Shown here one piece after another: positions 1 to 42,979 of a DNA stretch of 64,000 bases (the first letter of the stretch is position 1; every line of letters begins with the position of its first letter). The notes under the pieces were generated by a model, which was not told the DNA's origin, did no database searches, and saw only the letters and a program-made list of their open reading frames with translations. Source of the stretch: Escherichia phage UGJNEcP1. The stretch is taken from sequence record OV754623. One strand, written 5' to 3'. The position numbers and the translations under genes were made by a program.

Positions 1-43
1 AGGTATTTGGACAAGAATTTAAAGAAGCATCAGAATAAATTTA

Positions 44-68
44 GGGAGACTTCGGTCTCCCATTTTTG
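44..68 (+). terminator. Rho-independent terminator upstream of gene 36
   Basis: GC-rich hairpin gggagacttcggtctccc followed by a T-run. Confidence 0.6.
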
Positions 69-76
69 TATAAATA
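69..76 (+). promoter_or_regulatory. T4-type late promoter (TATAAATA) for gene 36
   Basis: Exact TATAAATA about 25 nt upstream of the ATG at 101, with RBS aaggag in between. Confidence 0.6.
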
Positions 77-100
77 TGGTATACATATAAGGAGACAACT

Positions 101-766
101 ATGGCCGATTTAAAAGCTGGTAGTACAACTGGCGGTGCTGTTATATGGCATCAAGGTAATTTCCCTTTAATGCCGGCAGGTGATGACGTCCTGTATAAAA
201 CGTTTAAACTCTATTCAGAATATAATAAGCCACAAGCGGCTGATAACGATTTCGTTTCTAAAGCTAATGGTGGTACGTATGCCGCTCGAGTAACATTTAA
301 TAATGGTGTGCAAGTACCTTATGCCGTAAATAACACAAATCAAAGTGGTATTTATCCTGGCAATGGCGATGCTGCTACTTTTGATACAGCAAATATTGAT
401 ATTGTTTCATGGTATGGCATTGGTTTTAAATCATCACAAGGATCTGCAGGTAGAACTGTTGTTGTTAACACTCGTACTGGTGATATCAGCACTAAAGGTG
501 GTATTTATGCAACTGGTCCTGTCCGTTCTAACGCTACTGCTCCTATAGCAGCGAATGACCTTACTAGAAAGGACTATGTTGACGGACGAATAAATATTGT
601 TACGGATAACGCAAATTCCCGTGTATTGCGTAAAGGCGATACCATGACTGGTACTTTAACAGCACCAAACTTTTTCTCACAGAATCCGGCGTCTGAGGCT
701 AATCATGTTCCTCGTTTCGACCAGATTGTAATTAAAGATTCTGTTCAAGATTTCGGCTATTATTAA
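101..766 (+). CDS. 36: Long tail fibre hinge/connector protein gp36
   Basis: 221 aa, same length as T4 gp36, directly upstream of gp37; Gly/Thr/Asn-rich fibre-like composition; strong RBS. Confidence 0.75.
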
Positions 767-774
767 GAGGACTT

Positions 775-3700
775 ATGGCTACATTAAAACAGATACAATT
801 TAAAAGAAGCAAAGTGGCAGGAGTTAATCCTACTGCAGCACAATTAGCCGAAGGCGAATTAGCGATAAACTTAAAAGATCGAACTCTTTTTACTAAAGAT
901 GACCTCGGTAATATTATTAGCCTAGGCTTTGCTAAGGGTGGGGATATTAACGGTAATGTAACTCAAACTGGCGATTATTTACAAAACGGCACGTATAATC
1001 TCAATGGAAATCAGTTTGTTTATGCAGGAAAATACATTGAATTTTTACCTAAAACCACTGGAAATGGCGCTTGGGCTAACCAACATTCGAATAAAGCCCC
1101 TATCTTTACAGATTTAAGTTCAACTACTTCTGTTTCAGAATACCATCCACTGATTAAACAACGCTATAAAGATGGAACTTTTTCTGCTGGTACATTAGTA
1201 AACGAAGGTAGTTTTAAATTCCATTATATTGATGAAACCGGGACTTCAAAATACTGGACTTTTAATCGAAACGGTAATTTTCAAGTTGATTCCGGAAGTT
1301 TATTAGTATCTAATGGATATTTAGTTACTCAAAGTAATATTGAAACTAAAGCTGGTTCTTTAATTGGTCCTAAAGTTATTACCAAAAATATCAATGTGAG
1401 CACTAAATCTTGGGACACTAATATTGATACTGCATATGATTTAGTTTCATTACCGACTTGGCAGTATACTCCAACCGAAACAGATTTGGATACTAATGGT
1501 ATAAACTACCTTCGTAAATTCCGCGGACATGTTTCTTCTGCTATTTTCCATGAAGTTGCTGATGCTCGTTCAGGTAAACCACAGAATATTTCGTATTGGA
1601 CAGGACGTAATGCTGAAGTTTATCAATGGTCTTATACCACAGATGGGCGTATGTCTGTTGCTAATTCGATAGGTATAGGTCTTGCTGATGTTGGTGACCA
1701 AGGACGTTATCCATTGGTTTCGTTTGGTAAAGGTATTGCAATTGGTGACAATGATACTGGTATTAAATGGGTTCGTGACGGGGTTATCGATTTAGTTGCG
1801 AATGGTATTTCTGCCGGCACTATTCTTAATAACGGTATTAACAGTACTAAAAAATTGATGGTTGGTTATAGTCGAGATTCTGGTTCTACTTGGGATTACC
1901 CAAATAACAACCAAGCAATGTTTACTGCGCGTACCGATGTTGATGGTAATAATAACGGTGACGGTCAGACTCATATCGGTTATAGTAGCAATGCCAAGAT
2001 GTATCACTATTTCCGTGGCACTGGTCGTATGTCCGTTAGTATGGGTGATGGGCTTCTTGTTGAGCCTGGCATTTTAGATATTAAAACCAGTTCAAATAGG
2101 GTTGCTATTAGAGCAGATGGTACATTTGACTCAACCCAACGTATTTCAATGCGTACTGGGTTATTTTTATCAGGTGATGACAATACCAATGCTTTGACAT
2201 TTAAAGCGCCTACAGGCGTTGACGGGACAAAAACCATTAACTGGGATGCAGGTACTCGTAATGGTCAGAATAAAAATACTGTAACCATTAAAGCATGGGG
2301 TAACTCATTTAACGCTGAAAAGGGTAATAGAGAAACTGTATTTGAAGTATCAGATTCACAAGGTTATTATTTTTATGCTCAACGTACCAACCCGGCTTCT
2401 GGTGAAACAGTAGGTCCTGTTAACTTTAAATTTAACGGAACTGTCGAAACAGGCCATATCATAGGCCTTGGTAATATAAGTGCCTCCGGTACAGGTTCTT
2501 TTGGTGGCAATGTTACCATGACTAATGGCCTGTTTGTCCAAGGTGGTTCTTCTATTACAGGCCAAGTTAAAATTGGTGGAACAGCTGATGCATTAAGAAT
2601 TTGGAATGCTGAATACGGTGCTATTTTCCGTCGTTCTGAAGATAAGCTTTATATTATTCCAACCCCGCAGAATGCTGGCGAATCAGGTGGTATTTCTAAT
2701 TTACGTCCGTTCTATATTACATTAAGTACCGGTAAAGTTTCTATGGACCATGATGTAGATATCGGTGGTGGAATATTTAAAGTAGAAACTAGTGGAACAA
2801 CAGCAGGGAAACGTATTACAGTTAATGCGGCGTCAGATGCTATTAGAATAAATGCCCCAACGCAAGAGTCTTCTAACTTTATTCAAGGACGTAAAGCAGA
2901 TGTTACAAAATGGTATTTAGGTATTGGCGATGGCGGCAACGTCGTTCGTATGCATAGTTACACCTATTCACATGGTATTGCACTGAATTCTGATACTGTC
3001 GATATTACTAAACCATTAAAAGTTGGTAATGCTCAATTCGGTACTGATGGTAATATCACTGGTGGTTCTGGTAATTTTGCTAACTTGAATACCACAATAA
3101 ATAACCTTAAGACAGATATTGTCTCAAGTTATCCAATTGGTGCTCCGATTCCTTGGCCTACTGATACACCTCCTGAAGGTTATGCCATAATGGAAGGCCA
3201 GACGTTTGATACTGACTTGTATCCTAAGTTAGCTGCGGTGTATCCTTCCGGCGCTCTGCCTGATATGCGCGGTCAAACTATCAAGGGTAAACCATCCGGG
3301 CGTGCTGTATTAAGTACAGAAGCAGACGGTGTTAAGTCACATAGCCATAGTGCAAGTGCGTCAAGCACGGATTTAGGTACTAAGACCACTTCTAGTTTTG
3401 ATTACGGTAGCAAAACGACTTCAAGCTTTGATTATGGTACTAAAACCAGTAATACTACTGGTAACCATAACCATACAGTGAGTGGTAATACTAGTGCCGC
3501 TGGTAATCACCAGCACTCACAGACAGGCCCAAGAGGACCTAGTAACCAACCGACCGGGATATTTCCTAATGGGGCTACTCTAATTAGTGGGACTCAGGTT
3601 ATTAGTTTTGGCCTAAGCAACGGTATCGTGCCTGGTACAAGCCAATATATTGCAAAGTCGTCAACAGAAGGTAACCATACCCATAGTTGGTCAGGAACTA

Positions 3701-3888
3701 CTAGCGCTACTGGTAACCATGCCCATACGGTAGGTATTGGTGCTCATACCCATTCGGTAGGTATTGGTGCTCATTCTCATACTGTTGCAATTGGTTCCCA
3801 TGGGCATACAATAACTGTAAATGCCACAGGAAATACAGAAAACACTGTTAAAAACGTTGCTTTTAACTATATCGTTCGTTTAGCATAA
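775..3888 (+). CDS. 37: Long tail fibre distal subunit gp37
   Basis: 1037 aa; C-terminal His-rich GNHxH / G(A/S)HxH repeats as in T4 gp37 needle domain; RBS aagagga. Confidence 0.9.
3403..3450 (+). repeat. In-frame tandem direct repeat inside gene 37 ([10 protein letters not shown] x2)
   Basis: Two near-identical ~24-27 nt units encoding [23 protein letters not shown]. Confidence 0.7.
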
Positions 3889-3921
3889 GGAGAAGGGACT
3901 TCGGTCCCTTTTTATAATATG
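3886..3921 (+). promoter_or_regulatory. Gene 38 translation initiation region: stable hairpin between SD and AUG
   Basis: SD aaggag at 3886-3891, hairpin gggacttcggtccc at 3895-3908, ATG at 3919; the hairpin would bring the SD to normal spacing, as described for T4 gene 38. Confidence 0.55.
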
Positions 3922-4470
3922 AAACTCTATCACTATTATTTTGACACTAAAGAATTTTACAAAGAAGAAAATTATAAACCATTAAAAGGCGTAGGATTTC
4001 CGGCTCATTCGACACCAAAAAAACCTTTAGACCCTAAAGAAGGCTATGCTGTTATATTTGACGAACGCGAGCAAGAATGGGTATATGTTGAAGACCATCG
4101 TGGAAAAACAGTATGGACTTATGATAAGCAAAAAATTGTTATTGACACTCCAGGTGCTCTTCAAAATGTTACTACAGAAGAACCTGGTGAATTTGACATT
4201 TGGACCGACGACGGGTGGAAGGAAGATGAAGCATATAAACGCGTAGTTCAACGTGATAAGAAAATTCATGAACTCTATAAATTATTCAGTGTTTTAAGTT
4301 CTCTTATTGACGCAGAGGTTGCTAATAGAGAAGAAAAACGAAAATTTAAAGAGCTCAAAAAATTCTTTGCCCTTTTAGAAAAACATGAACATCTTGGCGG
4401 CGAATTCCCTAAATTCCCTGACCTTGAAAAAAAATCTATTGTCAAAGCGATTATAAATATCTTTAAGTAA
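3919..4470 (+). CDS. 38: Tail fibre assembly chaperone gp38 (T4 type)
   Basis: 183 aa; N-terminus MKLYHYYFDTKEFYKEENYKP and C-terminus FFALLEKHEHLGGEFP match remembered T4 gp38. Confidence 0.85.
   Translation: MKLYHYYFDTKEFYKEENYKPLKGVGFPAHSTPKKPLDPKEGYAVIFDEREQEWVYVEDHRGKTVWTYDKQKIVIDTPGALQNVTTEEPGEFDIWTDDGWKEDEAYKRVVQRDKKIHELYKLFSVLSSLIDAEVANREEKRKFKELKKFFALLEKHEHLGGEFPKFPDLEKKSIVKAIINIFK
4452..4459 (+). promoter_or_regulatory. T4-type late promoter (TATAAATA) for holin t
   Basis: Exact TATAAATA about 20 nt upstream of the t start, followed by RBS aaggagg. Confidence 0.55.
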
Positions 4471-4479
4471 GGAGGTATT

Positions 4480-5142
4480 ATGGCAACACCAAAAGTGTCA
4501 TTTTCGCCTAGTGATATTCTATTTGGGTTGCTAGATCGTATTTTCAAAGATAACGCTACTGGAAAGGTTTTAATGTCCCGAGTAGCGGTAATTATTCTTT
4601 TGTTCCTAATGGCACTAATATGGTACAAAGGAAGTATTTTGCTGGATTATTATGTAAGAGCTAAGTATGATACTTATACTGAAATAATCCAAAAAGAACG
4701 AGCTTTACGTTTTGAATCTGCGGCTCTAGAACAACTGCAAATAGTTCATATCTCATCTGGTGCAGATTTTAGTGCTGTGTATTCTTTCAGACCTAAAAAC
4801 TTAAATTATTTTGTCGACCTTATAGCTTATGAAGGCAAACTACCTAGCACAATTTCTGAAAAGTCGCTTGGTGGATTCCCGGTGGATAAAACGGCTAATG
4901 AATATATAATTCATTTAAGTGGCCGTCATTTCTCATCTAAATCAGAATTTGCATTTTTGCCTACAAAATCTAAGACTGCCGAACTTTCTTATATGTATAG
5001 TTGTCCATACTTTAATTTGGATAACATCTATGCTGGAACTGTGGCGATGTATTGGTATAAGGGGAATAATAATATACTTGAGGAAGATCGCTTAGCGGCT
5101 ATATGCAACCAAGCGATCCGAATACTAGGAAGGGCTAAATAA
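4480..5142 (+). CDS. t: Holin T
   Basis: 220 aa; N-terminal SFSPSDILFG..DNATGKVL..SRVAV plus a single TM and large periplasmic domain match T4 holin. Confidence 0.9.
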   Translation: MATPKVSFSPSDILFGLLDRIFKDNATGKVLMSRVAVIILLFLMALIWYKGSILLDYYVRAKYDTYTEIIQKERALRFESAALEQLQIVHISSGADFSAVYSFRPKNLNYFVDLIAYEGKLPSTISEKSLGGFPVDKTANEYIIHLSGRHFSSKSEFAFLPTKSKTAELSYMYSCPYFNLDNIYAGTVAMYWYKGNNNILEEDRLAAICNQAIRILGRAK

Positions 5143-5415
5143 TTAGTTGTTAGAATACATCGCTAAATGACGATAAATATTTTCAAAACCTTCATTGAAT
5201 TCACTAATCAGTGTTTTCTTTTCTTCGGCAGTTAAATTTGTAATTAGTTTTCTAAAAGAATTCTGATTTAGCTGCCGACCATCTTTTTTAATTCCAATCT
5301 CATTCAAGAATCCGATGAAACTTGCTCGGTCTTCAACAATATCTTCCCTAGAGAATTTAATCAAAATAGAAGCAATAGTAATAATTTCACGTACAATTTC
5401 AATATCTTTATTCAT
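5143..5415 (-). CDS. asiA: Anti-sigma70 factor AsiA
   Basis: 90 aa; MNK.I..VREIIT.ASILIKFSREDIVE..A.F..FLNEIG matches T4 AsiA. Confidence 0.9.
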   Translation of the reverse strand: MNKDIEIVREIITIASILIKFSREDIVEDRASFIGFLNEIGIKKDGRQLNQNSFRKLITNLTAEEKKTLISEFNEGFENIYRHLAMYSNN

Positions 5416-5461
5416 AACGTTTTATTCATTCTACTTAGTTGATATGGATATAGTACCATTA

Positions 5462-5623
5462 TCAGTGTTGATTGTAAACAGCTTTTTCTACGCTTTTAAC
5501 GTAATTGACGTAGTCTTCCTGTTCGTACGAGTGTAAGGCTAAGAACAGAGCTAATAGTTCATTATAGACTAAAGCCTCACGCTCGCGTTCGGCCTCTACT
5601 ACGTTCTGAAGATTATGGCTCAT
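5462..5623 (-). CDS. Hypothetical small protein (about 53 aa)
   Basis: ORF from an internal ATG (MSHNLQ...) overlapping the stop of the upstream gene; no recognisable family. Confidence 0.3.
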   Translation of the reverse strand: MSHNLQNVVEAEREREALVYNELLALFLALHSYEQEDYVNYVKSVEKAVYNQH

Positions 5624-5912
5624 ACCGTTCCTTATAACTATCAATATAGTCCTGTATGTCGAAGAATGACATTTCATATTCTAGGGCATTAAGAGCCCGT
5701 TCTTCAGTATAGTCAGAACCAAAGACGATAGTGATTTCACCAGGCTTCATGTGATTGAAATCAACACTAAAAGGAATACGAGAACATACTTCGTCTGCCA
5801 TATCTGCAACAACACTACGATACACTTCTCGGTTAACCTGATAAAGCTCTGCAAGTTCTTCGCATCGAATAACAAGTTCAGTGGCAGGATTTTCTTTGAT
5901 TTTAGTAAGCAT
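5613..5912 (-). CDS. Acidic small protein at the arn position (possible Arn-like anti-restriction protein)
   Basis: About 100 aa from MLTKIKENPATEL; acidic; sits between asiA and motA where T4 has arn; identity from position only. Confidence 0.35.
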   Translation of the reverse strand: MLTKIKENPATELVIRCEELAELYQVNREVYRSVVADMADEVCSRIPFSVDFNHMKPGEITIVFGSDYTEERALNALEYEMSFFDIQDYIDSYKERYEP

Positions 5913-5995
5913 AGTCTTTACCCTTATGTTTTTGTTTGCGTTTAGATTGAAGTTCTGATTTCTTCTTGTCCTTATGGACAGAAGCCTTATTGAAA

Positions 5996-6214
5996 TCATG
6001 TTTTGCTACAAGATTGTTCATAATGATTTATAACCTCATTTAAGCATTTATCGGTAAAAGAAAACTTTTTAGCCACAGAACATTCGATAATGTGCTCTTT
6101 CAAATCTTTAGAGTCGGTATATCCCATCTCAGTAATAAAGTGGCGAATTAAAGCTTTATTCTTATCATTGACAGAATTAAAATAATCTGCTTTAGAATCA
6201 ATTATTCTCATCAT
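5996..6214 (-). CDS. Hypothetical early protein
   Basis: 72-aa ORF in the packed minus-strand array between asiA and motA. Confidence 0.4.
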   Translation of the reverse strand: MMRIIDSKADYFNSVNDKNKALIRHFITEMGYTDSKDLKEHIIECSVAKKFSFTDKCLNEVINHYEQSCSKT

Positions 6215-8433: not shown

Positions 8434-9759
8434 TCAAAGTGCCTCCAAGTCTTTAGTGTACTCTGTCACAACATCAGTAGACTTCCAATACTCGTTTTCT
8501 TCTTTCTTAGCTTTAGCTTCTTCTGCTAGTTTACGTGCTTCGTCGGAAGTGATATGGAAGATGTTAAGACCTACCAGTTTATCGACATGTTCTTTATACA
8601 TTTCGATTTGTGCTAGCTCTTCAGTCAAAGCTTTACGAGTCTTGCCTTGAATCACAATTTCACCGGCAATAACTTTTTTGATGAAGTGTGCCTTAGCAAA
8701 AGCAAGTTTAAATGCTTTTTCAGATTCAAGGATTTTGTTGTCAATACGTTTCTGAACGTAAGTCTTACGGACTTCAACAAAATCTTTGATTAAGTCCACT
8801 ACGTTATCGTAGACCGCTAATTTACCCTTTTCATTAATCACTGTGATGTTTTGTGAACGACGTTCGATGAGACTAAAATCTTTCATGATTTTTTCGTGAC
8901 GTAGCTCTTCATCATCAGGAAGCGAGTACTCTTTACGGAACTTCACCTTAAACCCAAAGCCGTGTTCACCACAATCATCTTCCCATGAGATTAGACCTTT
9001 GTCTTCCAACGGGTCAAGAACCTTACTCACATACGTTTCACGGTCGAATTTATATGGGATTTCAGTTATCTGCATTTGAGTGCGAGATGTGAACTTATAT
9101 GTTCCGTGAATCTCATAACGCCCATCAACTTCATGTACTTCACCACGGAATTCCGGGAATTCAACTTTTGGCTTAGTGACATTTTTACCTTGAAGAGCTT
9201 GTAATACAGCCTTTTTAACTGATTTAAAACTATGAGGCAGAATATTTGTTGCGTAACCGGTTGCAATACCAGAGACGCCATTCAAAAGAACTGTCGGAAT
9301 AATAGGAAGATAGAATTTTGGTGGAACGTGTTCTTTATCTTCATGAGCTGGAGCGTATTCAGTATCTTTATAGACATTATAGAAATTTTTACTTACACGA
9401 GCAAAAATATAACGAGATGCTGCAGCTTTTTGGACTGTTCTAGAACCAAAGTTGCCCTGGCCGTCTAACAGTGGATAGTTGTTGTTCCATGTGTTAGCCA
9501 TCAATGCACCTGCATCTTGTGCAGAAGATTCGCCATGATGATAACCTAAATCTGCAACACCTCCTGCAATTGACGCAAGTTTATGAAATTTTTCTTTATT
9601 ACCACGAGCCAAATCTAATGCCCGATGAACAACAAAACGTTGAACCGGCTTAAATCCATCAATCATGTTTGGGATTGCACGGTTTTCAACGGTGTACATC
9701 GCATATGCTAAGGCTTCGTTATCAATAATACTTTTTAGATTACGAGAATTCAATTGCAT
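8434..9759 (-). CDS. 52: DNA topoisomerase II medium subunit gp52 (GyrA-like)
   Basis: 441 aa; GFKPVQR, active-site region AAASRYIF.R, topo IIA A-subunit architecture as in T4 gp52. Confidence 0.9.
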   Translation of the reverse strand: MQLNSRNLKSIIDNEALAYAMYTVENRAIPNMIDGFKPVQRFVVHRALDLARGNKEKFHKLASIAGGVADLGYHHGESSAQDAGALMANTWNNNYPLLDGQGNFGSRTVQKAAASRYIFARVSKNFYNVYKDTEYAPAHEDKEHVPPKFYLPIIPTVLLNGVSGIATGYATNILPHSFKSVKKAVLQALQGKNVTKPKVEFPEFRGEVHEVDGRYEIHGTYKFTSRTQMQITEIPYKFDRETYVSKVLDPLEDKGLISWEDDCGEHGFGFKVKFRKEYSLPDDEELRHEKIMKDFSLIERRSQNITVINEKGKLAVYDNVVDLIKDFVEVRKTYVQKRIDNKILESEKAFKLAFAKAHFIKKVIAGEIVIQGKTRKALTEELAQIEMYKEHVDKLVGLNIFHITSDEARKLAEEAKAKKEENEYWKSTDVVTEYTKDLEAL

Positions 9760-13186: not shown

Positions 13187-15400
13187 TTATTTGGCCGCTT
13201 CCACGGCCTTCATGAATTTAACGATTTGAGCGACCTGTTCTTTTGAAAGAGTACCACGTCGTCCCATGTATTCTGACACAATATGATAATTGGTTTCAAA
13301 TTCAATAACCATTTTATCATCATTATCGTAAGCATTATCTTTAAGCTTATCGAAAATTTTAGCACACAATTCTAACTTCCTGTTCAGGTCTGTATTAGTA
13401 GCACCTGCGAATCGATTCCATCCCCAGCGATTATTTACTGTTGAGAGTTTTGCAAAGTCTTTACTGATTTCTTTGTTCTTAGAGCTAAAATACTTACTAA
13501 GGAAGTTAAGCTCTTCATTACGAGTAATATGATTCAAATAAGGCTGTGCTCTACGACTTGGTGATACATACTCATCATAATCTACTTTATCGATTAGCAT
13601 AATATAGTCATTAATTGATTTTTCAAACAAACATTCTACTTCACCAAGTTTACGAACTTTCTTAGCAATCTGTGGGCGAACTACAGTGAACTCTTTAATA
13701 CCTGACAAATCGGCAATACGAGTCAAGAAATTAGAATCATAGTTCAACCAACCTTTATCTGCGTCAAGACATTCAGCGTTAGAACGATTACGAATTACAA
13801 CATAACCTTGAATCTCATCAGCTTTACCGGCCGGAATAAAGAGATCTTCTGATACCCAAACATCGTTTTCATTCTTAAAGAACCGATGAGCACTCGGCGA
13901 TTTAGGACGAGGCTGCGATGAACGTTCTTTAACTTCAATCCACGGTTTAACTAATGCAAGAATTTCAGATGTCTTATAAAATTTAAGGCTATCACCAGCG
14001 AAAATAACCTTTAATCGTTCCAGAAGTTTCATTGCAACTTCATCTTCCGGGTTAATGAATAATACGCTACTACCCCATCCGGAAGGAACCTTATCAACGA
14101 GTGTTGATGCATCGGTGGAAGTCAAAGCATCGTTCAGAGCACGCATCATTGGTACGCGGCCTTTCACATCGTCAATAACGATATCAATATGCTTACGACT
14201 AATACCTAGCAGGCTATTAATTGAAATAGTTGCAGACGAGCTTCCGCTTTCACGAATACGACGAAGTCGTGGGTCTGAAACGATATCATATACAACGCCA
14301 AGGTTGCACCATTCAGGTCCCATTTTAAAACGTTTGTACAACTCAGAATAAGTTAGTTGTTCTTTAGAGTATTTCAGTGATTCAATATTAGAACCGGCTT
14401 TTTCCATATATTTACGAGCAGAGTAACCAAGAGAATCGATTTCACGGAATACATGACGTGGATATTCACAATCAATCCATTTCTTAGAATCTTCAGCAAA
14501 TAATTTTGCATCGATTTCTGCAACACGTTTATGGATATTTGCTACTGTACGTTTATCAAATGACAATGCTTCACGAGACGGGGCTACATCTAGTTCACCC
14601 ATAGGGAATTTAATATAAGCTGTAGTGCATCGCGTCATCATCCATGTTTGTTCTTTAATAACACTTCCGATTGGATATACAATACCGCCATAAACAGCCA
14701 TGATATTACCACGTTCACCCCATGGAGCTTCCTTGGCCAAATATACATCGTCAAATTCAGGAAAGTATTTAATATCTTTAACACCGCGAACTTCTGCAAT
14801 ATCACCTAGAGGACGCATAACATATGCAATTTCAGATGCGAACTTTTCAAAATCTTCTGGGTTAACAGGTACAACTACTTCTACACCCGTACGGTCATCA
14901 GGACCCATCTTATCTACAAAGGTTGGCTTAATCTGTGGACCACTGTCATCTTGGTAGATTACGTAACCACGAACTTCACCGTTGTGATAAGACGTAAGGT
15001 TAAACGTATCAGTATATGCTAGCGGAGCTTTAGAGCCGAGTCCGAATCCACCAATGAAATCGTTACTCGATGTTTTAGTTGAAGCAAAATATGAGTTATA
15101 GATTCCTGGCTCTTCGTCATTACCTCGAATGGTGAAATCACTCATACCAGGACCAAAGTCTCGAACTACAAAACGTGGGTCTAAACGACCTGGTGCCTGA
15201 ACAATAAACTTATCAGTGCAACCATTAAGAATTTGTCCATCGATACAGTTTGTGATTAATTCACGTACACAAGCCAATTCTTTGTTTGTATAAAGGTCAT
15301 TAGACAAAATCTTATAAACTTTGCTATTGCCTTGAATAGTAAATGCTGTGCTCTTACCGCCTGAACCAATAATCGTTTCTTTAGCCGTTTCAATAATCAT
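13187..15400 (-). CDS. rIIA: rIIA protein (GHKL ATPase-like)
   Basis: 737 aa; position upstream of rIIB; N-terminal ATPase-like region with Gly-rich loops (DFGPGM, GGFGLGSK). Confidence 0.85.
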   Translation of the reverse strand: MIIETAKETIIGSGGKSTAFTIQGNSKVYKILSNDLYTNKELACVRELITNCIDGQILNGCTDKFIVQAPGRLDPRFVVRDFGPGMSDFTIRGNDEEPGIYNSYFASTKTSSNDFIGGFGLGSKAPLAYTDTFNLTSYHNGEVRGYVIYQDDSGPQIKPTFVDKMGPDDRTGVEVVVPVNPEDFEKFASEIAYVMRPLGDIAEVRGVKDIKYFPEFDDVYLAKEAPWGERGNIMAVYGGIVYPIGSVIKEQTWMMTRCTTAYIKFPMGELDVAPSREALSFDKRTVANIHKRVAEIDAKLFAEDSKKWIDCEYPRHVFREIDSLGYSARKYMEKAGSNIESLKYSKEQLTYSELYKRFKMGPEWCNLGVVYDIVSDPRLRRIRESGSSSATISINSLLGISRKHIDIVIDDVKGRVPMMRALNDALTSTDASTLVDKVPSGWGSSVLFINPEDEVAMKLLERLKVIFAGDSLKFYKTSEILALVKPWIEVKERSSQPRPKSPSAHRFFKNENDVWVSEDLFIPAGKADEIQGYVVIRNRSNAECLDADKGWLNYDSNFLTRIADLSGIKEFTVVRPQIAKKVRKLGEVECLFEKSINDYIMLIDKVDYDEYVSPSRRAQPYLNHITRNEELNFLSKYFSSKNKEISKDFAKLSTVNNRWGWNRFAGATNTDLNRKLELCAKIFDKLKDNAYDNDDKMVIEFETNYHIVSEYMGRRGTLSKEQVAQIVKFMKAVEAAK

Positions 15401-15412
15401 ATTTTTCTCTCA

Positions 15413-15613
15413 TCACAAGTTACGTTTAAAAATTTCTGCCACTTCGAGAAGTTCTTCTTTAGTAGCTGTATCGGTTTGTATTTTATATCGAATTTCTTTA
15501 AAGCGTTCTTTAAAGGACTCTGCTGACTCGATATCAAAAAATCTTTGGATAAGCCGGAATTCCCGGAGCACTGCTTTATCAAAAAGTTCCAAGTCCACGT
15601 TATATGTTCTCAT
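15413..15613 (-). CDS. Hypothetical protein (rIIA.1 position)
   Basis: 66-aa ORF directly upstream of rIIA. Confidence 0.45.
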   Translation of the reverse strand: MRTYNVDLELFDKAVLREFRLIQRFFDIESAESFKERFKEIRYKIQTDTATKEELLEVAEIFKRNL

Positions 15614-15705
15614 AATATTCTCTTCAGTAGATTCCTAGGGCACTATTACTAAAGACCATATAATCTATCATCTTATGTGTAATAGTGCCTCAGGCTATTC
15701 AGGAT

Positions 15706-16806
15706 TTACGCTGTGAAGATTTTATCCCACATCGCAACAACTGCATCTCGGTTATACTTCTTCCATACTGCTTCAGCACGTTTAACTCGAGCTTCGTATG
15801 TGTCAGTGAATTCTAATACAGCTTTTGTGTAAAGCGCAACTACTTCTTTCTTAGGAGTAGAGGAATCAATTTCTACACGCACAGTATCTGGGTCGTATTC
15901 GAATGTCGCATGAGGATAATCCTTAAAAACTAACTGGATTACAGGGACACCTTTAGAGATGGCTTCAATAGAACTATTCTCTACAGTACCTGTGTCAGGA
16001 CACGTATTAATAAGTGCTTTAGCTGTTTTAAGACGTTCCATAATTTCACTGTGTGGAGCATCAATAATAACAGGATATTTAGCTGGTGGCGCCCATTTGC
16101 TTGGACAGTATCCTGCACCATTTTCGCCTAGTGCTTTAATCGCTTCAAGAGCAACATCAGTACGACGCATTTTAGTGTCATAACGTTGTGCACTAATAAT
16201 CAGATCCGTCGCCGGAAGAACTTCTGGCTTTTCAGTCAAACAAATAACCGGATAATCTTCGGCTTCAAACAACGGATTTGCTCGCCAATAATCATAATCA
16301 ATTTTGTCAGTCAGACCTGAAGTCATATAACAATATTTGCGTTCAAATTCACGGAAGGCTTTAGTAGGAGCATAACTCTTACCACCATTCTTATGAATTT
16401 GAATAGTCTGGTCCCAAATTTGAACAATGCCACGAGATACCGGTTCAAATGGTGTTGCCATAAAATTCTTATGAACTTTAGAGAGACCTGCGTCTTTAAT
16501 TGCCTGAACGGTTAGTTTAGTCGGTTCCATAGTAACAACAAAATCGTATTCATGGATGCCGGCTAGTTCAACAATCTTACGAGCCATAGTATAACTCATA
16601 CCTAGACTGAATTTAGTCAGATGACCAACAGGATGATGATTAACTTTCCAATCACCAAATGTGTCATTATCAAAACCGATATAATCAATATCAGCACCGA
16701 TGGACACAAGATATTTCAACACGTTCAAATGAACCGCTTCAAGACCACCTTGTACACGGTCAGGATTAAATGGGACTGCACGAGATGGGATAAACATAAC
16801 TTTCAT
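15706..16806 (-). CDS. GT-B (GT4-like) glycosyltransferase, candidate DNA sugar transferase
   Basis: 366 aa; N-terminal GGLEAVHLNVLKYL resembles the GT4 acceptor-domain motif; C-terminal TGTVENSSIEAISKGVPVI resembles the GT4 E-x7-E donor region; occupies the T4 gene 60 slot. Confidence 0.55.
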   Translation of the reverse strand: MKVMFIPSRAVPFNPDRVQGGLEAVHLNVLKYLVSIGADIDYIGFDNDTFGDWKVNHHPVGHLTKFSLGMSYTMARKIVELAGIHEYDFVVTMEPTKLTVQAIKDAGLSKVHKNFMATPFEPVSRGIVQIWDQTIQIHKNGGKSYAPTKAFREFERKYCYMTSGLTDKIDYDYWRANPLFEAEDYPVICLTEKPEVLPATDLIISAQRYDTKMRRTDVALEAIKALGENGAGYCPSKWAPPAKYPVIIDAPHSEIMERLKTAKALINTCPDTGTVENSSIEAISKGVPVIQLVFKDYPHATFEYDPDTVRVEIDSSTPKKEVVALYTKAVLEFTDTYEARVKRAEAVWKKYNRDAVVAMWDKIFTA

Positions 16807-16814
16807 AATTAAGC

Positions 16815-16850
16815 CTTATTAAAATTAAAATGAAGCTCCCGAAGGAGCTT
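16815..16850 (-). terminator. Hairpin/terminator at the end of gene 39
   Basis: Minus-strand hairpin aagctcc-ttcg-ggagctt right after the stop, followed by a T-rich tract. Confidence 0.45.
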
Positions 16851-18666
16851 AGGACATCCATTCTTTACGAAGTTCTGAATCATCACCCATCAACATTTCA
16901 AAGAGTTCTTTCCAATTTTCAGGAAGTTTAACTACGTCGTACACAGGGTTCTGAATCATTTCACGATATTCTGACTTTTCAAGGGAGCCTAATCCCTTGA
17001 TGTATCTAATACTATGCTTAGGCAGTGTATCTTTAACTTCTTCATACTCAGCTACAGTATAAAACCATTTTTGAGTTTTGCCAATTTGTGCAATAATTAC
17101 AGGCGTTTTAACAAAACGAATACGTCCTTGTTCAAACAATTCAGGCCAATTACTAAAGAAAGCAAGCAAAGCCGGATAGATACTTCCAAGACCGTCGTGA
17201 TCTGCATCGGTCATAATTGCAATATTACGATAGTTCGTATTCTCTGCCTTTTCACCAAGAATAAGACCTGTGATAGCACAGATATCGAAGAGCTCTTTGT
17301 TCTTCATCATATCGGCATATGACATACCCCAGCTATTCATCACCTTACCACGTAATGGGAATCCACCGTGTAGTTCACGGTCACGAACATCAATGAGATA
17401 ACCAATTGCCGAATCACCTTCTGTTAAAAACAATGTTGTATCTGCATCTTTACCGCATTGGTTAGCTTTAATATGCTTATGAACCTTAGCTTTAGTTGCC
17501 TTTTTAGCTGCTTTAGTTTCTGCAGCCTTTTCTGCCGCCAATTTACGAGCTAATGCTGCTTCAACAATAGGCATAATCAAGGCTTCGTTTTTAAGAAGTG
17601 CCTGAGCAATTTTCTTAGCATCTAATTGGATATGATTACGAATATCACCGTACGTTGACGTTAAACGCTCTTTAGTCTGAGAATCAAAACGCATGTTGCT
17701 CATGTCTCTAATAAACATCAACATTGTGAGACATTCTTTAACACGAGCTTTAGTGACTTCAATACCCTTATATTTCTTTTTAATACCTGGCAAAAGATGT
17801 TCACAGATATCATCCATTACACATTCAACATGATGACCACCATTTTTAGTATGGATGTTATTCACATAAGTTAAATGACGGAAGCCATCTGGTGATGTTG
17901 TGAATGCTATAGAAACTTTATCATTTTCTTGAATGATGTTATCTTCACCAAATTGTTTAGCAAATCGTTTAAAATTACCATCAACCTTTTTACCATTAAA
18001 TGTGAACTTGATATCAGGATAAACGACTGCCAATGTTTGAAGTCGGTCTAAAGTAATATCTAAATAAATTTGAGATAAATTGTGCTCTTCAAACGAAGAG
18101 AAATCAGGAGTGAAGATTACTTTAGTGCCTTTACCTTTAGATTTCTTAGAAGACCATGATTTGTTTTCCATTCCATTTGAACAGTTAACAGTGATTTCAT
18201 TTTCGCCATCTGACGTAATGCCTGTAAACAACGTAGAGAAGATATTAGTTAAACTACTCCCGACGCCATTCATACCACCAGTCTTGCGTTCAGAGTCATC
18301 ACCAAAGTTACCACCGGCCTTTGGAATAGTCCAGGCTGCTACAGGCCCAGGAATTTGTTCACCTGTTTGGTCGGTAACTAAACCTTGAGGAATACCACGT
18401 CCGTTATCTTCCACCGAAACTTGATTATTTTTAATTTGCACATCAATTTTATTTGCAAACTTAAATGATGTACGAATAGCTTCATCAACCGAGTTGTCAA
18501 TAATCTCATCGATTAATTTAACCAGACCAGGAACATATTCAACTTGTTGATATTTACCAAACAAAAAACGCTCATGTGCTTCTTTAGCTGAAGAACCAAT
18601 ATACATACCACTGCGTTTCTTAATATGTTCTACATCCGACAATACCTTAATTTCATTTTTAATCAT
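16849..18666 (-). CDS. 39: DNA topoisomerase II large subunit gp39 (GyrB-like), unsplit
   Basis: 605 aa continuous ORF with N-terminal GHKL ATPase and TOPRIM region (LTEGDSA); not split as in T4. Confidence 0.9.
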   Translation of the reverse strand: MIKNEIKVLSDVEHIKKRSGMYIGSSAKEAHERFLFGKYQQVEYVPGLVKLIDEIIDNSVDEAIRTSFKFANKIDVQIKNNQVSVEDNGRGIPQGLVTDQTGEQIPGPVAAWTIPKAGGNFGDDSERKTGGMNGVGSSLTNIFSTLFTGITSDGENEITVNCSNGMENKSWSSKKSKGKGTKVIFTPDFSSFEEHNLSQIYLDITLDRLQTLAVVYPDIKFTFNGKKVDGNFKRFAKQFGEDNIIQENDKVSIAFTTSPDGFRHLTYVNNIHTKNGGHHVECVMDDICEHLLPGIKKKYKGIEVTKARVKECLTMLMFIRDMSNMRFDSQTKERLTSTYGDIRNHIQLDAKKIAQALLKNEALIMPIVEAALARKLAAEKAAETKAAKKATKAKVHKHIKANQCGKDADTTLFLTEGDSAIGYLIDVRDRELHGGFPLRGKVMNSWGMSYADMMKNKELFDICAITGLILGEKAENTNYRNIAIMTDADHDGLGSIYPALLAFFSNWPELFEQGRIRFVKTPVIIAQIGKTQKWFYTVAEYEEVKDTLPKHSIRYIKGLGSLEKSEYREMIQNPVYDVVKLPENWKELFEMLMGDDSELRKEWMS

Positions 18667-18699
18667 GTTGTCTCCTCGTTATGAAGGTATTCTATCATC

Positions 18700-18722
18700 C
18701 GAAATCTAAAGCAAAAAGGGCC
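18700..18722 (-). terminator. Rho-independent terminator upstream of gene 39
   Basis: Minus-strand hairpin agggcttcggccct followed by TTTTT. Confidence 0.5.
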
Positions 18723-18729
18723 GAAGCCC

Positions 18730-19173
18730 TTATTTAAATTTAATTTTCTGAAGTGCATCAATTGCAGCTAAACGCCCTTGTTCACTTTTAACTGTAATGA
18801 CCACATCGCCTGATACGATCACCGAACCATCAACAAATTCTATAGAGCCTTTTTTGAAATCGACAGCTGTATCTGGTTCCGGAACTTCTTCAAAGAATTT
18901 AAATTCTGCACCATAAATCAGAATATCACCTTGCATACTAATGATTGTACGTCTAGGTCCATCGGTTTCAGCGGCAATCATTGAAACACCATAACCAATC
19001 ATCTCTTCTACAATAAAATCTCTTGATAATAAAACTGTATGCAGAGTAGTGTTAAGACGTTTACCAGTTGTATTAAGAATTCTCAAGAAATTATCTTCTT
19101 GACCTTTGATAATACGATATTTCTTACCAACTTCAAAACCTTTAAAACCTTTAAAAGCCGTATTAAAAGCCAT
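18730..19173 (-). CDS. Hypothetical protein (147 aa)
   Basis: ORF in the variable region between 39 and dexA. Confidence 0.5.
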   Translation of the reverse strand: MAFNTAFKGFKGFEVGKKYRIIKGQEDNFLRILNTTGKRLNTTLHTVLLSRDFIVEEMIGYGVSMIAAETDGPRRTIISMQGDILIYGAEFKFFEEVPEPDTAVDFKKGSIEFVDGSVIVSGDVVITVKSEQGRLAAIDALQKIKFK

Positions 19174-19175
19174 AA

Positions 19176-19355
19176 TTAACCCTTCTTAAGTAAGTCGTAA
19201 AAACCACCGTTCACATGTTTAGGAGCAGAAACCCGACGAGTAGACAGACGATGACATTCAGGGCAAACATCGTTTTCTCGTTCAGAAATCCTTTTAATTT
19301 TTTCATATTCATGACCACAATCTTCAGATTGACATTTATAGTCGTATAACGGCAT
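19176..19355 (-). CDS. Zinc-ribbon small protein (FmdB-like)
   Basis: Hand-translated [45 protein letters not shown]...; two CxxC pairs; below the track cutoff; TAATG overlap with the upstream gene. Confidence 0.55.
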   Translation of the reverse strand: MPLYDYKCQSEDCGHEYEKIKRISERENDVCPECHRLSTRRVSAPKHVNGGFYDLLKKG

Positions 19356-19768
19356 TATTGTTCCTTAAAATGTGCTTTCAACATTTGATACAAAGACCAT
19401 GCCTGGTCGTTATTTTCGATAGTAATCGTCATCACAGGAAATTCAGACAATTCGTCAAGTTCATCAGAATCTTGCTCTTCAGACGCTTGATATGGATTTC
19501 CAACTTCGTCAAAGAACTCTGCTTCATTCGTGGAGAGCCAGATAAAGTTTTCATCAAGGATATCACCGCCTGTTGCGTATCCAACCGTGCCAGTAGATGT
19601 TAAAATTTTAGTAGGACGTCCGAGATGGTCAACATCTAATACTTTAAATGGTTCCATGCCAAGACGTCGTGCATAAATCCCATTATCAGTGTGGTCTTTA
19701 ATAAACTCTTCTTGGGCACGTTTATCTATAAATTGATACCATGAGTTAACGCGGAATTTATTAGCCAT
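19355..19768 (-). CDS. Hypothetical acidic protein
   Basis: ORF from [13 protein letters not shown]; acidic C-terminal stretch. Confidence 0.5.
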
Positions 19769-37060: not shown

Positions 37061-37609
37061 TTAACGAGCCCATTTAATGATTTCTGTAATCAAATTATTA
37101 CGTTCGCTTGCATTAAATCCTATAACTTTGTTAGAACCATCATGATTAAGTAATTGATACGTTTGGATTTTGTTATGAATTGCAAACTCTTCAAAATGTG
37201 AAATGACTGTATTAAAACCGAATGAAGACAAAGTAATAAGGTCGTCTTCAAAACTTTCAGTCATTTCGTTACGTGTTAAAATAATTGTGAACACATCATG
37301 GTTTTGGCAAAGACGAACATAATCCTGTTCATAAACGTCAAGAACCGAGTCCGCATCTTGTCGAATACGTCCATAAACCCAGTTACTAATATATCCACGG
37401 TCTAATAGATAAATCTTAGTAGGGTCTAAATAATTCAACATCGTTTCGAAACAGCCAACTTCATTTCGAGACTTAACATCGAAACGCCCATCAACTGTTC
37501 GTTTAGGGAAATCAATCTTTACATATCTTTCACTAATTTCCATTATATCATTAATGAAAGTTGTTTTACCAGCATTATCCGGCCCGTCTACTAAAATAAT
37601 TTTAGCCAT
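37061..37609 (-). CDS. Thymidylate-kinase-like P-loop nucleotide kinase
   Basis: 182 aa; Walker A GPDNAGKTT near the N-terminus and DRGYISNWVYG resembling the Tmk DR-Y..S..AY substrate motif. Confidence 0.55.
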   Translation of the reverse strand: MAKIILVDGPDNAGKTTFINDIMEISERYVKIDFPKRTVDGRFDVKSRNEVGCFETMLNYLDPTKIYLLDRGYISNWVYGRIRQDADSVLDVYEQDYVRLCQNHDVFTIILTRNEMTESFEDDLITLSSFGFNTVISHFEEFAIHNKIQTYQLLNHDGSNKVIGFNASERNNLITEIIKWAR

Positions 37610-37610
37610 T

Positions 37611-38510
37611 TTATTCCTCGATTACGACATCTTCGTATTTAGGTATATTATACGGTGAAGAAATTAAAGCATTAAAGTAGATGAACTCACCAAGACCTGG
37701 ATGGAATACTTCTTCAGGATTTTCGAAATATTGAATCTTCGGACGTCCTTTAAGAATTTGATAGTACTCAGTTTTAGTTGGATTAAAAATTCGAATCAGC
37801 GCTTCTTCAGGATACTTATTTCTGTCGAAACTATTATTTGGATCAGTTATATAAAGCGGTTGACCTAATTGAATTGCGCATTCAACCACTTGTTCAAAAC
37901 GATAGCATGGGTCACTAATTCGAAATGGATGAAAAATACCATCTAGATGAATAGGAGCCAAATCACCTACAAGACGCTGCATGACGGAAGGACGTATAAC
38001 TTTCTGCGTTACGATAATCTTATTACCATCTGCACCTGCGTTAACCAGCACTTCTTTTTGACGTTCATTCAACATAGTAGTTTGAAGTGAACGATTAACA
38101 GACAACATGTCGGTTTTTAAGAATTCATCAATATAAAAACGTGGTTTATTAGGGTCTGCAGTGATATTGAAATTGAATTCTACATCAAAAGCGCCGTCAT
38201 ATCCAGTGATATCTGTGATTAGAAAATCACAATCATAATAAGCAATTAATGAATCAACCACAAATTCATTTTCAGACCAAAAATATTTACGAGTGTTATA
38301 CGCGTTATCTTTATACCATAATGGAACAAACTTAAATTCTGGGAAAAGACGTTCACATTCTTTAATATCAGATGCATTACGTGGATATGTAATCACATCA
38401 CCCGGATTAGCACGGTGCAAATGAAGTTGGAAGTTGCCATCCTTAAGGATAGCATACTGTCCAGTTTCATAAGACCGCATACTCAAGATAGGTACGCGGA
38501 AAATAGCCAT
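37611..38510 (-). CDS. Hypothetical protein in the beta-gt slot (candidate DNA-modifying enzyme)
   Basis: 299-aa ORF directly downstream of and overlapping gene 42; positional analogue of T4 beta-gt; no clear family motif. Confidence 0.45.
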   Translation of the reverse strand: MAIFRVPILSMRSYETGQYAILKDGNFQLHLHRANPGDVITYPRNASDIKECERLFPEFKFVPLWYKDNAYNTRKYFWSENEFVVDSLIAYYDCDFLITDITGYDGAFDVEFNFNITADPNKPRFYIDEFLKTDMLSVNRSLQTTMLNERQKEVLVNAGADGNKIIVTQKVIRPSVMQRLVGDLAPIHLDGIFHPFRISDPCYRFEQVVECAIQLGQPLYITDPNNSFDRNKYPEEALIRIFNPTKTEYYQILKGRPKIQYFENPEEVFHPGLGEFIYFNALISSPYNIPKYEDVVIEE

Positions 38511-39226
38511 TAGTCAAGGAATCCTTTAACATAATCAAAATCACGTTCAAACACATGGGCACTTACCATGGTATGAGTATAATCACCAACTTCTACACCA
38601 CATTCGTTAGCGATATAATGAAGTAATTTTCCTTGGAGATAAAAATCCAACTGCATAACAACAGCACAGTTCTGGGAACGCATATGACAGTGGGTATAAA
38701 GCTTACCATCACGAATATAATAAGTCACTGAGTCAGTACATGGATATTCAAGCGTTTCGTCCGAATCAAGCAAAGCCTGATCAGAACTTTCTAGAATTTG
38801 GAACACAACTCTTCGGGAGTTAGGCTTCTCTTTAAGTTCTTTTAGAAGAGCTGGTAATTGAGCCGCAATGCGAGGGCCATAGAAAGTGTTGAAGTTCGCC
38901 GGCAAAACATCTGATTTTGGTTTAGAAATAAATTTAGCGACATTAGGATATGCCTTAAACGCTTCTTCTGCGTTGGTACCACCAGAAATCATAAACTTCC
39001 AGAAGTCTTCGGCATATTCATAAGAGATGCGGTTAATACGTGGGTCGGTCATTTTGAATGATGATGGAGTGTCAACAACCACTGTCATAGACCCAATTTC
39101 ATTACAACGTCCAATACGAGAATCAGTTACGAATTCCGGGTTTTCTAAAATTTCACGATTGACTGCTTTAAATGCGGCTTGAAAATCTGCGGCTTTGATA
39201 TATTTCATTGTGTTATGTTTTCCCAT
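38510..39226 (-). CDS. 42: dCMP hydroxymethylase gp42 (thymidylate-synthase fold)
   Basis: 238 aa; EYPCTDSVTYYIRDGKL...HMRSQN aligns with T4 gp42 catalytic Cys region MCTNTVQYLIRD...NMRSND. Confidence 0.7.
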   Translation of the reverse strand: MGKHNTMKYIKAADFQAAFKAVNREILENPEFVTDSRIGRCNEIGSMTVVVDTPSSFKMTDPRINRISYEYAEDFWKFMISGGTNAEEAFKAYPNVAKFISKPKSDVLPANFNTFYGPRIAAQLPALLKELKEKPNSRRVVFQILESSDQALLDSDETLEYPCTDSVTYYIRDGKLYTHCHMRSQNCAVVMQLDFYLQGKLLHYIANECGVEVGDYTHTMVSAHVFERDFDYVKGFLD

Positions 39227-39268
39227 GTTTACCTCAATACAATTTATTATATACTCAATTCGTAAAGC

Positions 39269-39508
39269 TTATTTGAATTTCTTGACAATGTTGATATAAC
39301 GTAAAGCTTCAGCATCGATACTTCCAAGAACACTATGAAGAAATGCATCAGCGTAATATTCTAGTTGAACAGGTTCTTTAATCACTTTAGCCGCTTTAGT
39401 TTCAAACAGGCCCATCAGGGCCTTTTTAAGAATTTGTTCGTTAGTGTTCAGTTTAATAGTCAAAATCTCTTCGTTAAGTTGGTGGTTAAAAGTTTTTCTA
39501 GAAATCAT
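39269..39508 (-). CDS. Hypothetical protein (79 aa)
   Basis: ORF between the U32-like gene and gene 42; start overlaps the upstream stop. Confidence 0.45.
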   Translation of the reverse strand: MISRKTFNHQLNEEILTIKLNTNEQILKKALMGLFETKAAKVIKEPVQLEYYADAFLHSVLGSIDAEALRYINIVKKFK

Positions 39509-40665
39509 TCCGGGTACCTCAAAGCGTCATCAGAGTTAGTTATATCAATAATAGATATAGAGTTTTCTGCTAACCCGTTTTTAGATAATTGACGTTTATA
39601 ATATCTTTCACAATATGTACACGTCGTCCCGCAGATTTCATTAGCACAATCGAAATCTGGATGTCTGAACCACCTTTTTTCTAAAAAGCCATCTAACAAA
39701 GAGGTTTCAATATTTACTGTATGTGAAAACTCAGTTTCGTTTTCAAGAGTGAAAATAGTCTCTAAAGGCTTCCACAGTTCTAACAAATTACCTTCAAACT
39801 TTTCAGAAGCGTATGCTTCAAGAACTTTCAAAATGTAGTCTGTGCTACCTGTACGTCCTGAAACTTTGAATTGAGTGATACCAATATCATTATAAAGTTT
39901 CAAATCTTGAGGACGAACAAAACGAGTTCTCAACCAGTTAAATGGGTCTGTATCACGAGCTTTAATACAGTGCTGCATAGGATATCCGTTTAAGGATTTA
40001 GCATCATCGGCTGTAACATCAGTACTATGGAAAATATAGCAAGAGTCACGATAGCTACAATGTGTTGTATACCCTTTACCAGCATTAGAACAGAACTCAT
40101 TTACAAGAACTTCAAATATTATATTGTTCTTATTGCAAAACTCTGCTGCACGCTTCAGGAAAGAAACTGAACGGTTCTTATGAATTCCACAGCAGACCTT
40201 TTTGATATTATATTGGTCATGCAAGTATTTGATTTGAGTTACAGCATCGACATGTAGAATTGTTGAAACTTCAATCTCAATGTCTTTATTGACTTCACGA
40301 ACAATTTCCATAACAACAGGGTTAGCGATAGTAATACGCCATACGCCTATTGACCAAAGATACTGAACATAATCCTGAATAGCTTTCTTCTTCCACTCAA
40401 CTAGTTCTCTTTTTGAACCAGGATTTATCGTGTTGAGTGTATAGTTAAAGCAAATACCTAATTCGTTACAACGTTTAACGTAATCTTCTAACATCTTTTT
40501 GTCAACGTCAGGAAGCCTAAAATCAGGTCTGGCTGCTACAAAAGCCATTTCTCTTGTAGAGCCGTATACTTCATTTATCAAGCTATTAGGATAAGTTTTA
40601 TTGAGCTCTACGATTTTATCAAGAAGAGCTAAATCAAAATTCGTTCCGATTTTAAAAGTATTCAT
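39505..40665 (-). CDS. Cys-rich protein resembling peptidase U32 family (TIM-barrel, Fe-S type)
   Basis: 386 aa; N-terminal FKIGTNFDLALL..INEVYGS and central NRSVSFLKRA...EVLVNEFCSNAGKGYTTHC resemble the U32 signature region; C-terminal CANEICGTTCTYC contains C-x3-C-x2-C. Confidence 0.4.
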   Translation of the reverse strand: MNTFKIGTNFDLALLDKIVELNKTYPNSLINEVYGSTREMAFVAARPDFRLPDVDKKMLEDYVKRCNELGICFNYTLNTINPGSKRELVEWKKKAIQDYVQYLWSIGVWRITIANPVVMEIVREVNKDIEIEVSTILHVDAVTQIKYLHDQYNIKKVCCGIHKNRSVSFLKRAAEFCNKNNIIFEVLVNEFCSNAGKGYTTHCSYRDSCYIFHSTDVTADDAKSLNGYPMQHCIKARDTDPFNWLRTRFVRPQDLKLYNDIGITQFKVSGRTGSTDYILKVLEAYASEKFEGNLLELWKPLETIFTLENETEFSHTVNIETSLLDGFLEKRWFRHPDFDCANEICGTTCTYCERYYKRQLSKNGLAENSISIIDITNSDDALRYPE

Positions 40666-40719
40666 TTTTTACATCTCGCGTTAATTGATGCGATGGTTTT
40701 TTTGCAGGTCTTACTTAAA

Positions 40720-42794: not shown

Positions 42795-42835
42795 GTTGAA
42801 GTCCTCATTGGTAAGTAGGAGTATTGTACACTATT

Positions 42836-42979
42836 CTAGTTAAAGCATTCATACTTTGCTTGTAGTCCAATCATAATCCATCCGATTATAAGAGTCGGAA
42901 TCATTACCGGAGCCGTTAAGCTCCAGTAGATAGTCATGACAAGCATCAATAGTAAAAGTCCTATTGTTATTGCTTTCAT
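42836..42979 (-). CDS. Small membrane protein (about 47 aa)
   Basis: Hand-translated MKAITIGLLLLMLVMTIYWSLTAPVMIPTLIIGWIMIGLQAKYECFN; ATGA overlap with the SIS gene stop; below the track cutoff. Confidence 0.4.
   Translation of the reverse strand: MKAITIGLLLLMLVMTIYWSLTAPVMIPTLIIGWIMIGLQAKYECFN

Follow-up and report, generated by a model that had tools for sequence, protein, structure and literature searches.

Unsplit gene 39 of Escherichia phage UGJNEcP1, the position of the T4 split within it and its glycosyltransferase neighbour

Phage T4 divides the large, GyrB-like subunit of its type II DNA topoisomerase between genes 39 and 60, and a 50-nt gap within gene 60 is passed over by translational bypassing. 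The closest known systems to the gene considered here are gene 39 of RB69 and the unsplit genes, annotated as gene 39 or 60plus39, of T2, T6, RB14 and RB32; the GenBank note on RB69 gene 39 records that an insertion in T4 divides the large Topo II subunit into gp60 and gp39. We have analysed a 64,000-nt stretch of Escherichia phage UGJNEcP1 (record OV754623; "the window" below means this whole stretch), in which gene 39 is a single open reading frame (ORF) encoding 605 amino acids (aa), with a glycosyltransferase gene beyond its stop codon. An earlier reading of this DNA, the original prediction, had drawn attention to both genes and had taken their junction as a record of how the T4 arrangement may have arisen.

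MobA, a homing endonuclease of the HNH type, nicks the unsplit T2 gene; the split and the bypass gap are transferred along with it, and this gap protects the invaded gene from re-cleavage by MobA (Edgell et al. 2010, PMC2988022; Manning & Atkins, bioRxiv 10.1101/2022.08.31.505936). The MobA element, about 1.1 kb in length, replaces 64 nt; besides a re-coded homologous patch of its own, called 'homR', it carries the 50-nt gap and another 9 nt (Manning & Atkins). By cryo-EM (electron microscopy), the T4-specific Toprim insertion of about 70 aa protrudes from the domain and hardly affects activity, and T6 has the two-subunit form; both the T6 and the T4 enzymes carry out ATP-dependent DNA relaxation, and the T-even phage enzyme is without the C-terminal beta-pinwheel domain and the GyrA box of bacterial gyrases (Xin et al. 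2024, PMC11461880). In T4 and a few close relatives, the MobA element would have inserted into the Toprim-coding region, replacing about 64 nt; gp39 would have gained a C-terminal tail and gp60 an N-terminal one, and the 50-nt bypass gap would have come with the element. The primary MobA paper is reportedly that of Bonocora and coworkers in PNAS in 2011, whose results we know through Manning & Atkins, where it is reference 19.

An unsplit large subunit with an empty MobA target site

The ORF begins with ATG and occupies 16849..18666 on the minus strand, like every feature of the window described below; the end coordinate of the ORF listing includes the stop codon. It is the only ORF there, which bears out the claim of a single 605-aa frame without a split, and a GAGG ribosome-binding site stands about 10 nt 5′ of its start codon. 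PHROG 543 ('DNA topoisomerase II large subunit') matches the product over aa 1-605 (E=2.3e-287). Residues 1-605 also align end to end with residues 1-604 of the solved unsplit T6 gp39 chain, 8ylu_C, whereas the artificial T4 gp39-gp60 fusion 8yo3_C aligns in two stretches. These matches, with the Pfam domains and the T4 alignment given below, identify the gene as gene 39 in its 60plus39 form, encoding the unsplit GyrB-like large subunit of the phage type II DNA topoisomerase.

The protein has the domain order GHKL, transducer and Toprim that is common to bacterial GyrB/ParE and to the N-terminal half of eukaryotic Topo II; it matches human Topo IIa (E=1e-61), ParE (E=4e-48) and GyrB (E=1e-37), and is shorter than these counterparts. 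The GHKL ATPase domain (aa 47-189, 18100..18528; Pfam PF02518 HATPase_c, E=3.5e-11, above cut-off) carries the N-box EIIDNSVDE at aa 54-62, DNGRGIP at aa 87-93 and GGMNGVGSS at aa 130-138. The transducer domain (aa 249-385, 17512..17922; PF00204 DNA_gyraseB, E=2.8e-14, above cut-off) includes the QTK loop, QTKERL, at aa 330-335. The remainder, aa 411-604 (16855..17436), comprises the Toprim domain, which is the one split in T4, and the C-terminal tail; like the motifs of the other two domains, both Toprim catalytic motifs are intact, TEGDSA at aa 415-420 and DADHDG at aa 487-492. Nothing of substance weighs against this reading; Pfam Toprim (17.5 against 23.1 bits) and TOPRIM_C (27.8 against 29 bits) both score under their curated cut-offs. 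This is expected, because the phage family is divergent, and the motifs and the collinearity with the T6 structure compensate for it.

Thus one polypeptide would hold the whole GyrB-like subunit: GHKL ATPase, transducer, Toprim and C-terminal tail. The window also encodes its partner: about 7 kb from gene 39, a gene 52 homologue (8434..9759; 441 aa; Pfam PF00521 DNA_topoisoIV, E=6.8e-78) specifies the GyrA-like subunit; gp39 and gp52 may together form an A2B2 type IIA topoisomerase, as in T2 and T6. That the 605-aa protein is active in this way is predicted from published work on the T4 and T6 enzymes.

To compare the ORF with the divided T4 genes, gp39 and gp60 were translated from NC_000866, with gp60 joined across its 50-nt gap, and were aligned by blastp, with tblastn as confirmation. 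T4 gp39 aa 1-473 corresponds to ORF aa 1-474 at 79% identity and gp60 aa 27-159 to ORF aa 473-605 at 87% identity (E=8e-88), so that the two T4 segments tile the 605-aa ORF with an overlap of two residues. The C-terminal region equivalent to gp60, whose lack would have spoken against an unsplit subunit, is therefore present. By blastp against the ORF, the last 43 residues of T4 gp39 and about the first 30 of gp60 had no counterpart.

To find the boundaries of the split, T4 and RB14 were matched without gaps from either end, as prefix and as suffix, and the sequences were then inspected codon by codon. The two phages are 96.8% identical up to nt 1418, where there is a clean break; a perfect match resumes 330 nt before the stop codon, and just 3′ of the T4 landing codon there is a stretch of lower identity. 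These boundaries agree with the published description of the element of about 1.1 kb (Manning & Atkins). Two other placements of the T4 insertion were rejected: a global DNA alignment with cheap gaps scattered it into many tiny blocks, and MAFFT pushed it to the 3′ end.

Mapped to the window, T4 gp39 homology ends at Ala474, which places the split point after codon 474, at 17246/17245. From the third base of this codon to codon 495 lies the empty target site (17181..17245), the equivalent of the 64 nt replaced by the T4-type MobA element. In T4, as the original prediction held and the T4 record agrees, the subunit is split between genes 39 and 60 with bypassing: the gap lies between gene 60 Gly46 and Leu47 (misc_feature 2803..2852). 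The DADHDG motif at this position is common to both phages, and in the window the gap would fall between Gly492 and Leu493, at 17191/17190, inside the Toprim sequence DADHDG|LG. There codons 492-493, GGT CTT (Gly-Leu; 17188..17193), are contiguous, and codons 492-494 (GGT CTT GGA) run on with no coding gap with take-off and landing codons after the DADHDG glycine. The T4 insertion is thus internal to the ORF, at codons 474-495, and the gene 60 equivalent is made up of codons ~478-605.

Unlike the window, T4 has a net 1,053 extra nt, which encode the 43-aa C-terminal tail of gp39, a mobA (pseudo)gene and the unique gp60 N-terminus of about 30 aa, and which also hold the re-coded homologous patch and the 50-nt gap; of this patch the window has the native counterpart only. 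When the T4 element was searched for in the 64-kb window by tblastx and blastn, no trace of MobA, of the C-terminal or N-terminal tails (CTE and NTE) or of the bypass gap was found, and the sole match was that native counterpart of homR, 45 nt at 17192-17236 with 80% identity. We regard it as nearly certain that the ORF is the intact gene 39 of a Mosigvirus (an RB69-like T-even phage), of the ancestral type and never invaded by a MobA element. The direction of the change, by insertion into T4 and not by loss here, we infer from the literature.

It is very improbable that the ORF is instead a secondary re-fusion, descended from an ancestor with the MobA split through subsequent loss of the endonuclease, of the bypass and of the break in the gene. 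Re-fusion and 'hit and run' cases do exist in other clades, and re-fusion has been reported for a Campylobacter-phage clade, but re-fused or decayed cases keep the CTE and NTE tails derived from the element (Manning & Atkins). The window has only the homologous patch, and because such cases retain their tails, the failure to find them argues against a decayed or re-fused element; the ORF also has exactly the 605-aa length of RB14 60plus39 and is collinear with T6 gp39. Less credible still would be an assembly or consensus artefact that made the ORF continuous and hid a real interruption: no support for it was found (older records do hold local frameshift errors, as at the 5′ end of RB69 gene 39 and, perhaps, near the QTK loop in T4), and the 4.1 kb that surround the ORF have 99.7% identity to Escherichia phage UGJNEcP2 (genus Mosigvirus) and 95-99% identity to about 150 other, independently sequenced RB69-like phages.

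Two local differences from older records lie within the gene. In the RB69 reference (NC_004928, 5330-5483, against window 18517-18666), compensating indels in the first ~150 nt of gene 39 leave residues 14-50 garbled relative to both the window and RB14; these apparent compensating frameshifts, which are probably sequencing errors in an old record, account for an RB69 product of 606 and not 605 aa. In the T4 reference (NC_000866, about 4345-4355), gp39 reads MRLIRQTKERL where the window (codons 326-329), RB69 and RB14 have MRFDSQTKERL. This compensated -1/+1 shift directly before the ATP-sensing QTK loop could be either a change specific to T4 or an old sequencing error.

Frequency of the unsplit form and the history of the T4 split

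In a tblastn search of 50,697 phage records, a 116-aa peptide that covers both T4 discontinuities had a match in 1,970. Of these, 1,896 have a contiguous junction, and 160 records match the peptide at at least 95% identity, which tells further against an artefact of assembly. The T4 mobA/bypass cassette was detected by megablast in only 43 records, all of them at least 97% identical to T4, and all 40 of the matches listed bear Escherichia, Enterobacteria, Tequatrovirus, Salmonella or Shigella phage names; among the carriers are T4, T4T, RB55 and RB59, which we take to be T4-like. From these counts, the unsplit gene is the rule in T4-like phages and T4 is the exception, and therefore the window shows the default state. 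The original prediction was right that the subunit is one continuous ORF here, but its "several non-T4 T-even phages" are too few.

The observation is thus correct but ordinary, because the T4 split is a rare exception, due to a mobile element known from earlier work. As to the junction being a record of the origin of the T4 arrangement, it does preserve an empty target site, but others have reconstructed that history before, from closer empty-site comparators (Manning & Atkins; Edgell et al. 2010). Relative to the Tequatrovirus/T4-type genes the window has about 76% nucleotide identity, against the 96-99% of those already analysed (Manning & Atkins), and is for that reason the poorer comparator. 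The arrangement, the MobA element and the bypass gap are all known, and the window adds nothing to their history. Beyond correct annotation its significance is slight; the one useful clarification is positional, in that the T4 interruption falls at codons 474-495, within the Toprim-coding part of the gene.

The glycosyltransferase between gene 39 and rIIA.1

The gene that follows gene 39 (15706..16806; 366 aa) encodes a GT-B/GT4-like glycosyltransferase, the orthologue of RB69 gp3 (ORF003c). Over its full length the product matches a solved structure, PDB 9iqz/9ir0 (E=5.9e-249), deposited as 'Glycosyltransferase subfamily 4-like N-terminal domain-containing protein', and it is nearly identical to 9iqz; to RB69p003 it is identical at 364 of 366 residues; the GT-B residues Gly20 and Glu281 are conserved. 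No Pfam family was matched at E<=0.01, and the PHROG that it matches, 8302, is labelled 'unknown function'. Because the family is too divergent for such profiles, the assignment rests on the name of the solved structure, for which our literature search found no describing paper, and on published fold comparisons, in which RB69 gp3 is assigned to GT-B (PMC6024577, PMC13326640); further literature on glycosyltransferases of the gp3 type is given in PMC13390438.

The original prediction had this gene in "the gene 60 slot". The glycosyltransferase is real, but the slot is not, since the gene 60 equivalent is inside the gene 39 ORF. From the topoisomerase stop codon to rIIA.1 there are 54 nt in both RB14 and T4 and 1,235 nt in the window. 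RB14, the only Tequatrovirus examined for it, has no glycosyltransferase gene 3′ of the topoisomerase stop, unlike the window; in RB69, gp3 has the same position as here, between rIIA.1 and gene 39, with no material difference. The glycosyltransferase gene is, then, an extra gene between the topoisomerase stop and rIIA.1, and not a replacement of gene 60; as RB14 has only 54 nt there, it is an independent addition of 1.2 kb. That it replaced gene 60, with the C-terminal part of the topoisomerase lost or supplied from elsewhere, has in its favour only its position between gene 39 and rIIA.1, which is the place of mobA and gene 60 in T4, and can be dismissed as exceedingly improbable given that residues equivalent to gp60 are present within the ORF at 87% identity, that the T4 element inserted about 340 nt before the stop codon and not after it, and that the short RB14 spacer points to a separate addition. 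The neighbour is an unrelated DNA-modification gene, and it would be wrong to see it in the place of gene 60 or as its replacement.

As to its function, Thomas et al. 2018 (PMC6024577) proposed ORF003c as the RB69 arabinosyltransferase. Lee et al. 2026 (PMC13326640) revised the chemistry to arabinosylated 5-hydroxycytosine and proposed that gp3 adds a second arabinose; they describe in vitro activity for the gp76 and gp77 pair of Acinetobacter phage DLP3. On this basis the 366-aa protein is proposed as a putative second DNA arabinosyltransferase acting on arabinosyl-5-hydroxycytosine. For RB69 gp3 this role is itself a hypothesis of the literature. The gene would be a separate cargo gene of the cytosine-arabinosylation pathway, functionally unrelated to the topoisomerase.

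By tblastn, the glycosyltransferase is found at at least 95% identity in about 155 Mosigvirus-type records, and a further 55 records, from Acinetobacter phages, have homologues of about 43% identity, two loci to a genome. The short spacer between topoisomerase and rIIA.1 may be where the gene for a second arabinosyltransferase settled in the Mosigvirus lineage. Separately, what may have kept MobA out of the Mosigvirus topoisomerase genes is the arabinosylation of the DNA, together with barriers to recombination with T4-like phages, and not a diverged target site. The joint idea, of a spacer that serves as an insertion point for cargo and of Mosigvirus genes that are uninvaded, shielded MobA targets, is speculative and we consider it rather unlikely to hold as a whole.

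Among the Acinetobacter T4-like phages with two glycosyltransferase homologues is KARL-1 (MH713599), whose MobA element has a pseudogenized endonuclease (Manning & Atkins); at least one phage of this group, AB-Navy-v2 (OZ075066), also has a broken topoisomerase junction. In Shigella phage JK45 (MK962757), a partial tandem duplication, about 500 bp, of the 3′ part of the glycosyltransferase gene (locus 2694-3104) yields an extra 136-aa ORF between the full gene and rIIA.1. JK45 is filed under Tequatrovirus, yet this region is Mosigvirus-like and 97.4% identical to the window.

Flanking genes, expression signals and the arabinosylation cluster

Window positions 13187-19400 are collinear with RB69 positions 1-6195 at 97.1% identity, and the gene order rIIA, rIIA.1, ORF003c and gene 39 (RB69p004) is the same in both, with point differences only. 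The rIIA.1 homologue (15413..15613; 66 aa; Pfam PF24210 T4_RIIA1, E=2.1e-30) is identical to that of RB69 at all 66 residues, and rIIA (13187..15400; 737 aa; PHROG 612, E=6e-224) at 729 of 737. On the 5′ side of gene 39, a 147-aa ORF (18730-19173) has the position of RB69ORF005c and RB32ORF005c; it matches PHROG 622 (labelled as of unknown function; E=3e-19), and its last ~40 residues have a weak likeness to goF (PHROG 13003, E=2e-05). For the small T4 gene 39.1, no annotated counterpart stands between gene 39 and the 39.2-like gene in the window or in RB69, as judged from annotation without a search.

The expression context of gene 39 can be read only provisionally, from sequence motifs. Upstream of the gene, at 18689..18713, there is a candidate T4-type middle promoter, with a MotA-box-like TGCTTTA, a 12-nt spacer and TAGAAT, called by its match to the generally known MotA-box consensus. 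Between this site and the end of the 147-aa ORF, a terminator-like scan found a UUCG-tetraloop hairpin followed by a T run (18716..18731), and a second hairpin with a UUCG tetraloop (16833..16850) overlaps the stop codon of gene 39 and has a T-rich tract after it. The spacer between gene 39 and the glycosyltransferase gene is 42 nt; the stop-codon hairpin ends 26 nt before the glycosyltransferase start codon, and no promoter-like site was seen between the two. A generic sigma-70 promoter scan returned 13 sites, with 13.2 expected from shuffled sequence, and we base no promoter claim on it. The glycosyltransferase gene and rIIA.1 are separated by a spacer of 92 nt (15614-15705), in which GGCACTATTAC ... 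GTAATAGTGCC make up an 11-bp inverted repeat around a loop of about 34 nt; by eye, this spacer has no evident likeness to the 54-nt early-promoter-like spacer of RB14 at the same position.

The RB69-type cytosine-arabinosylation cluster is complete in the window, at 37061-43611, just before the DNA polymerase gene and some 20 kb away from the gene 39 neighbour, the second glycosyltransferase. Its ThyA-like, NTP-transferase, SIS isomerase and Peptidase_U32 ORFs (37-43.6 kb) match the RB69 gp45-55 cluster listed in PMC13326640. Within it lie genes for a ThyA-like putative 5-hydroxy-dCMP synthase, a Peptidase_U32 protein, a 561-aa NTP-transferase (NTP-transferase/kinase in RB69) and a SIS-domain isomerase, together with three ORFs that have no Pfam hit: one of 182 aa at the position of the RB69 gp45 nucleotide kinase, one of 134 aa at that of the gp51 phosphatase, and one of 299 aa that is probably arabinosyltransferase 1 (GT1). 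In DLP3, the arabinosyltransferase genes are gp76, gp77 and gp79, and by their numbers they go together with the rest of the arabinosylation genes, gp78-gp83. The GT1 gene of the RB69 reference is divided into genes 46 and 47, whereas in the window it is one intact ORF.

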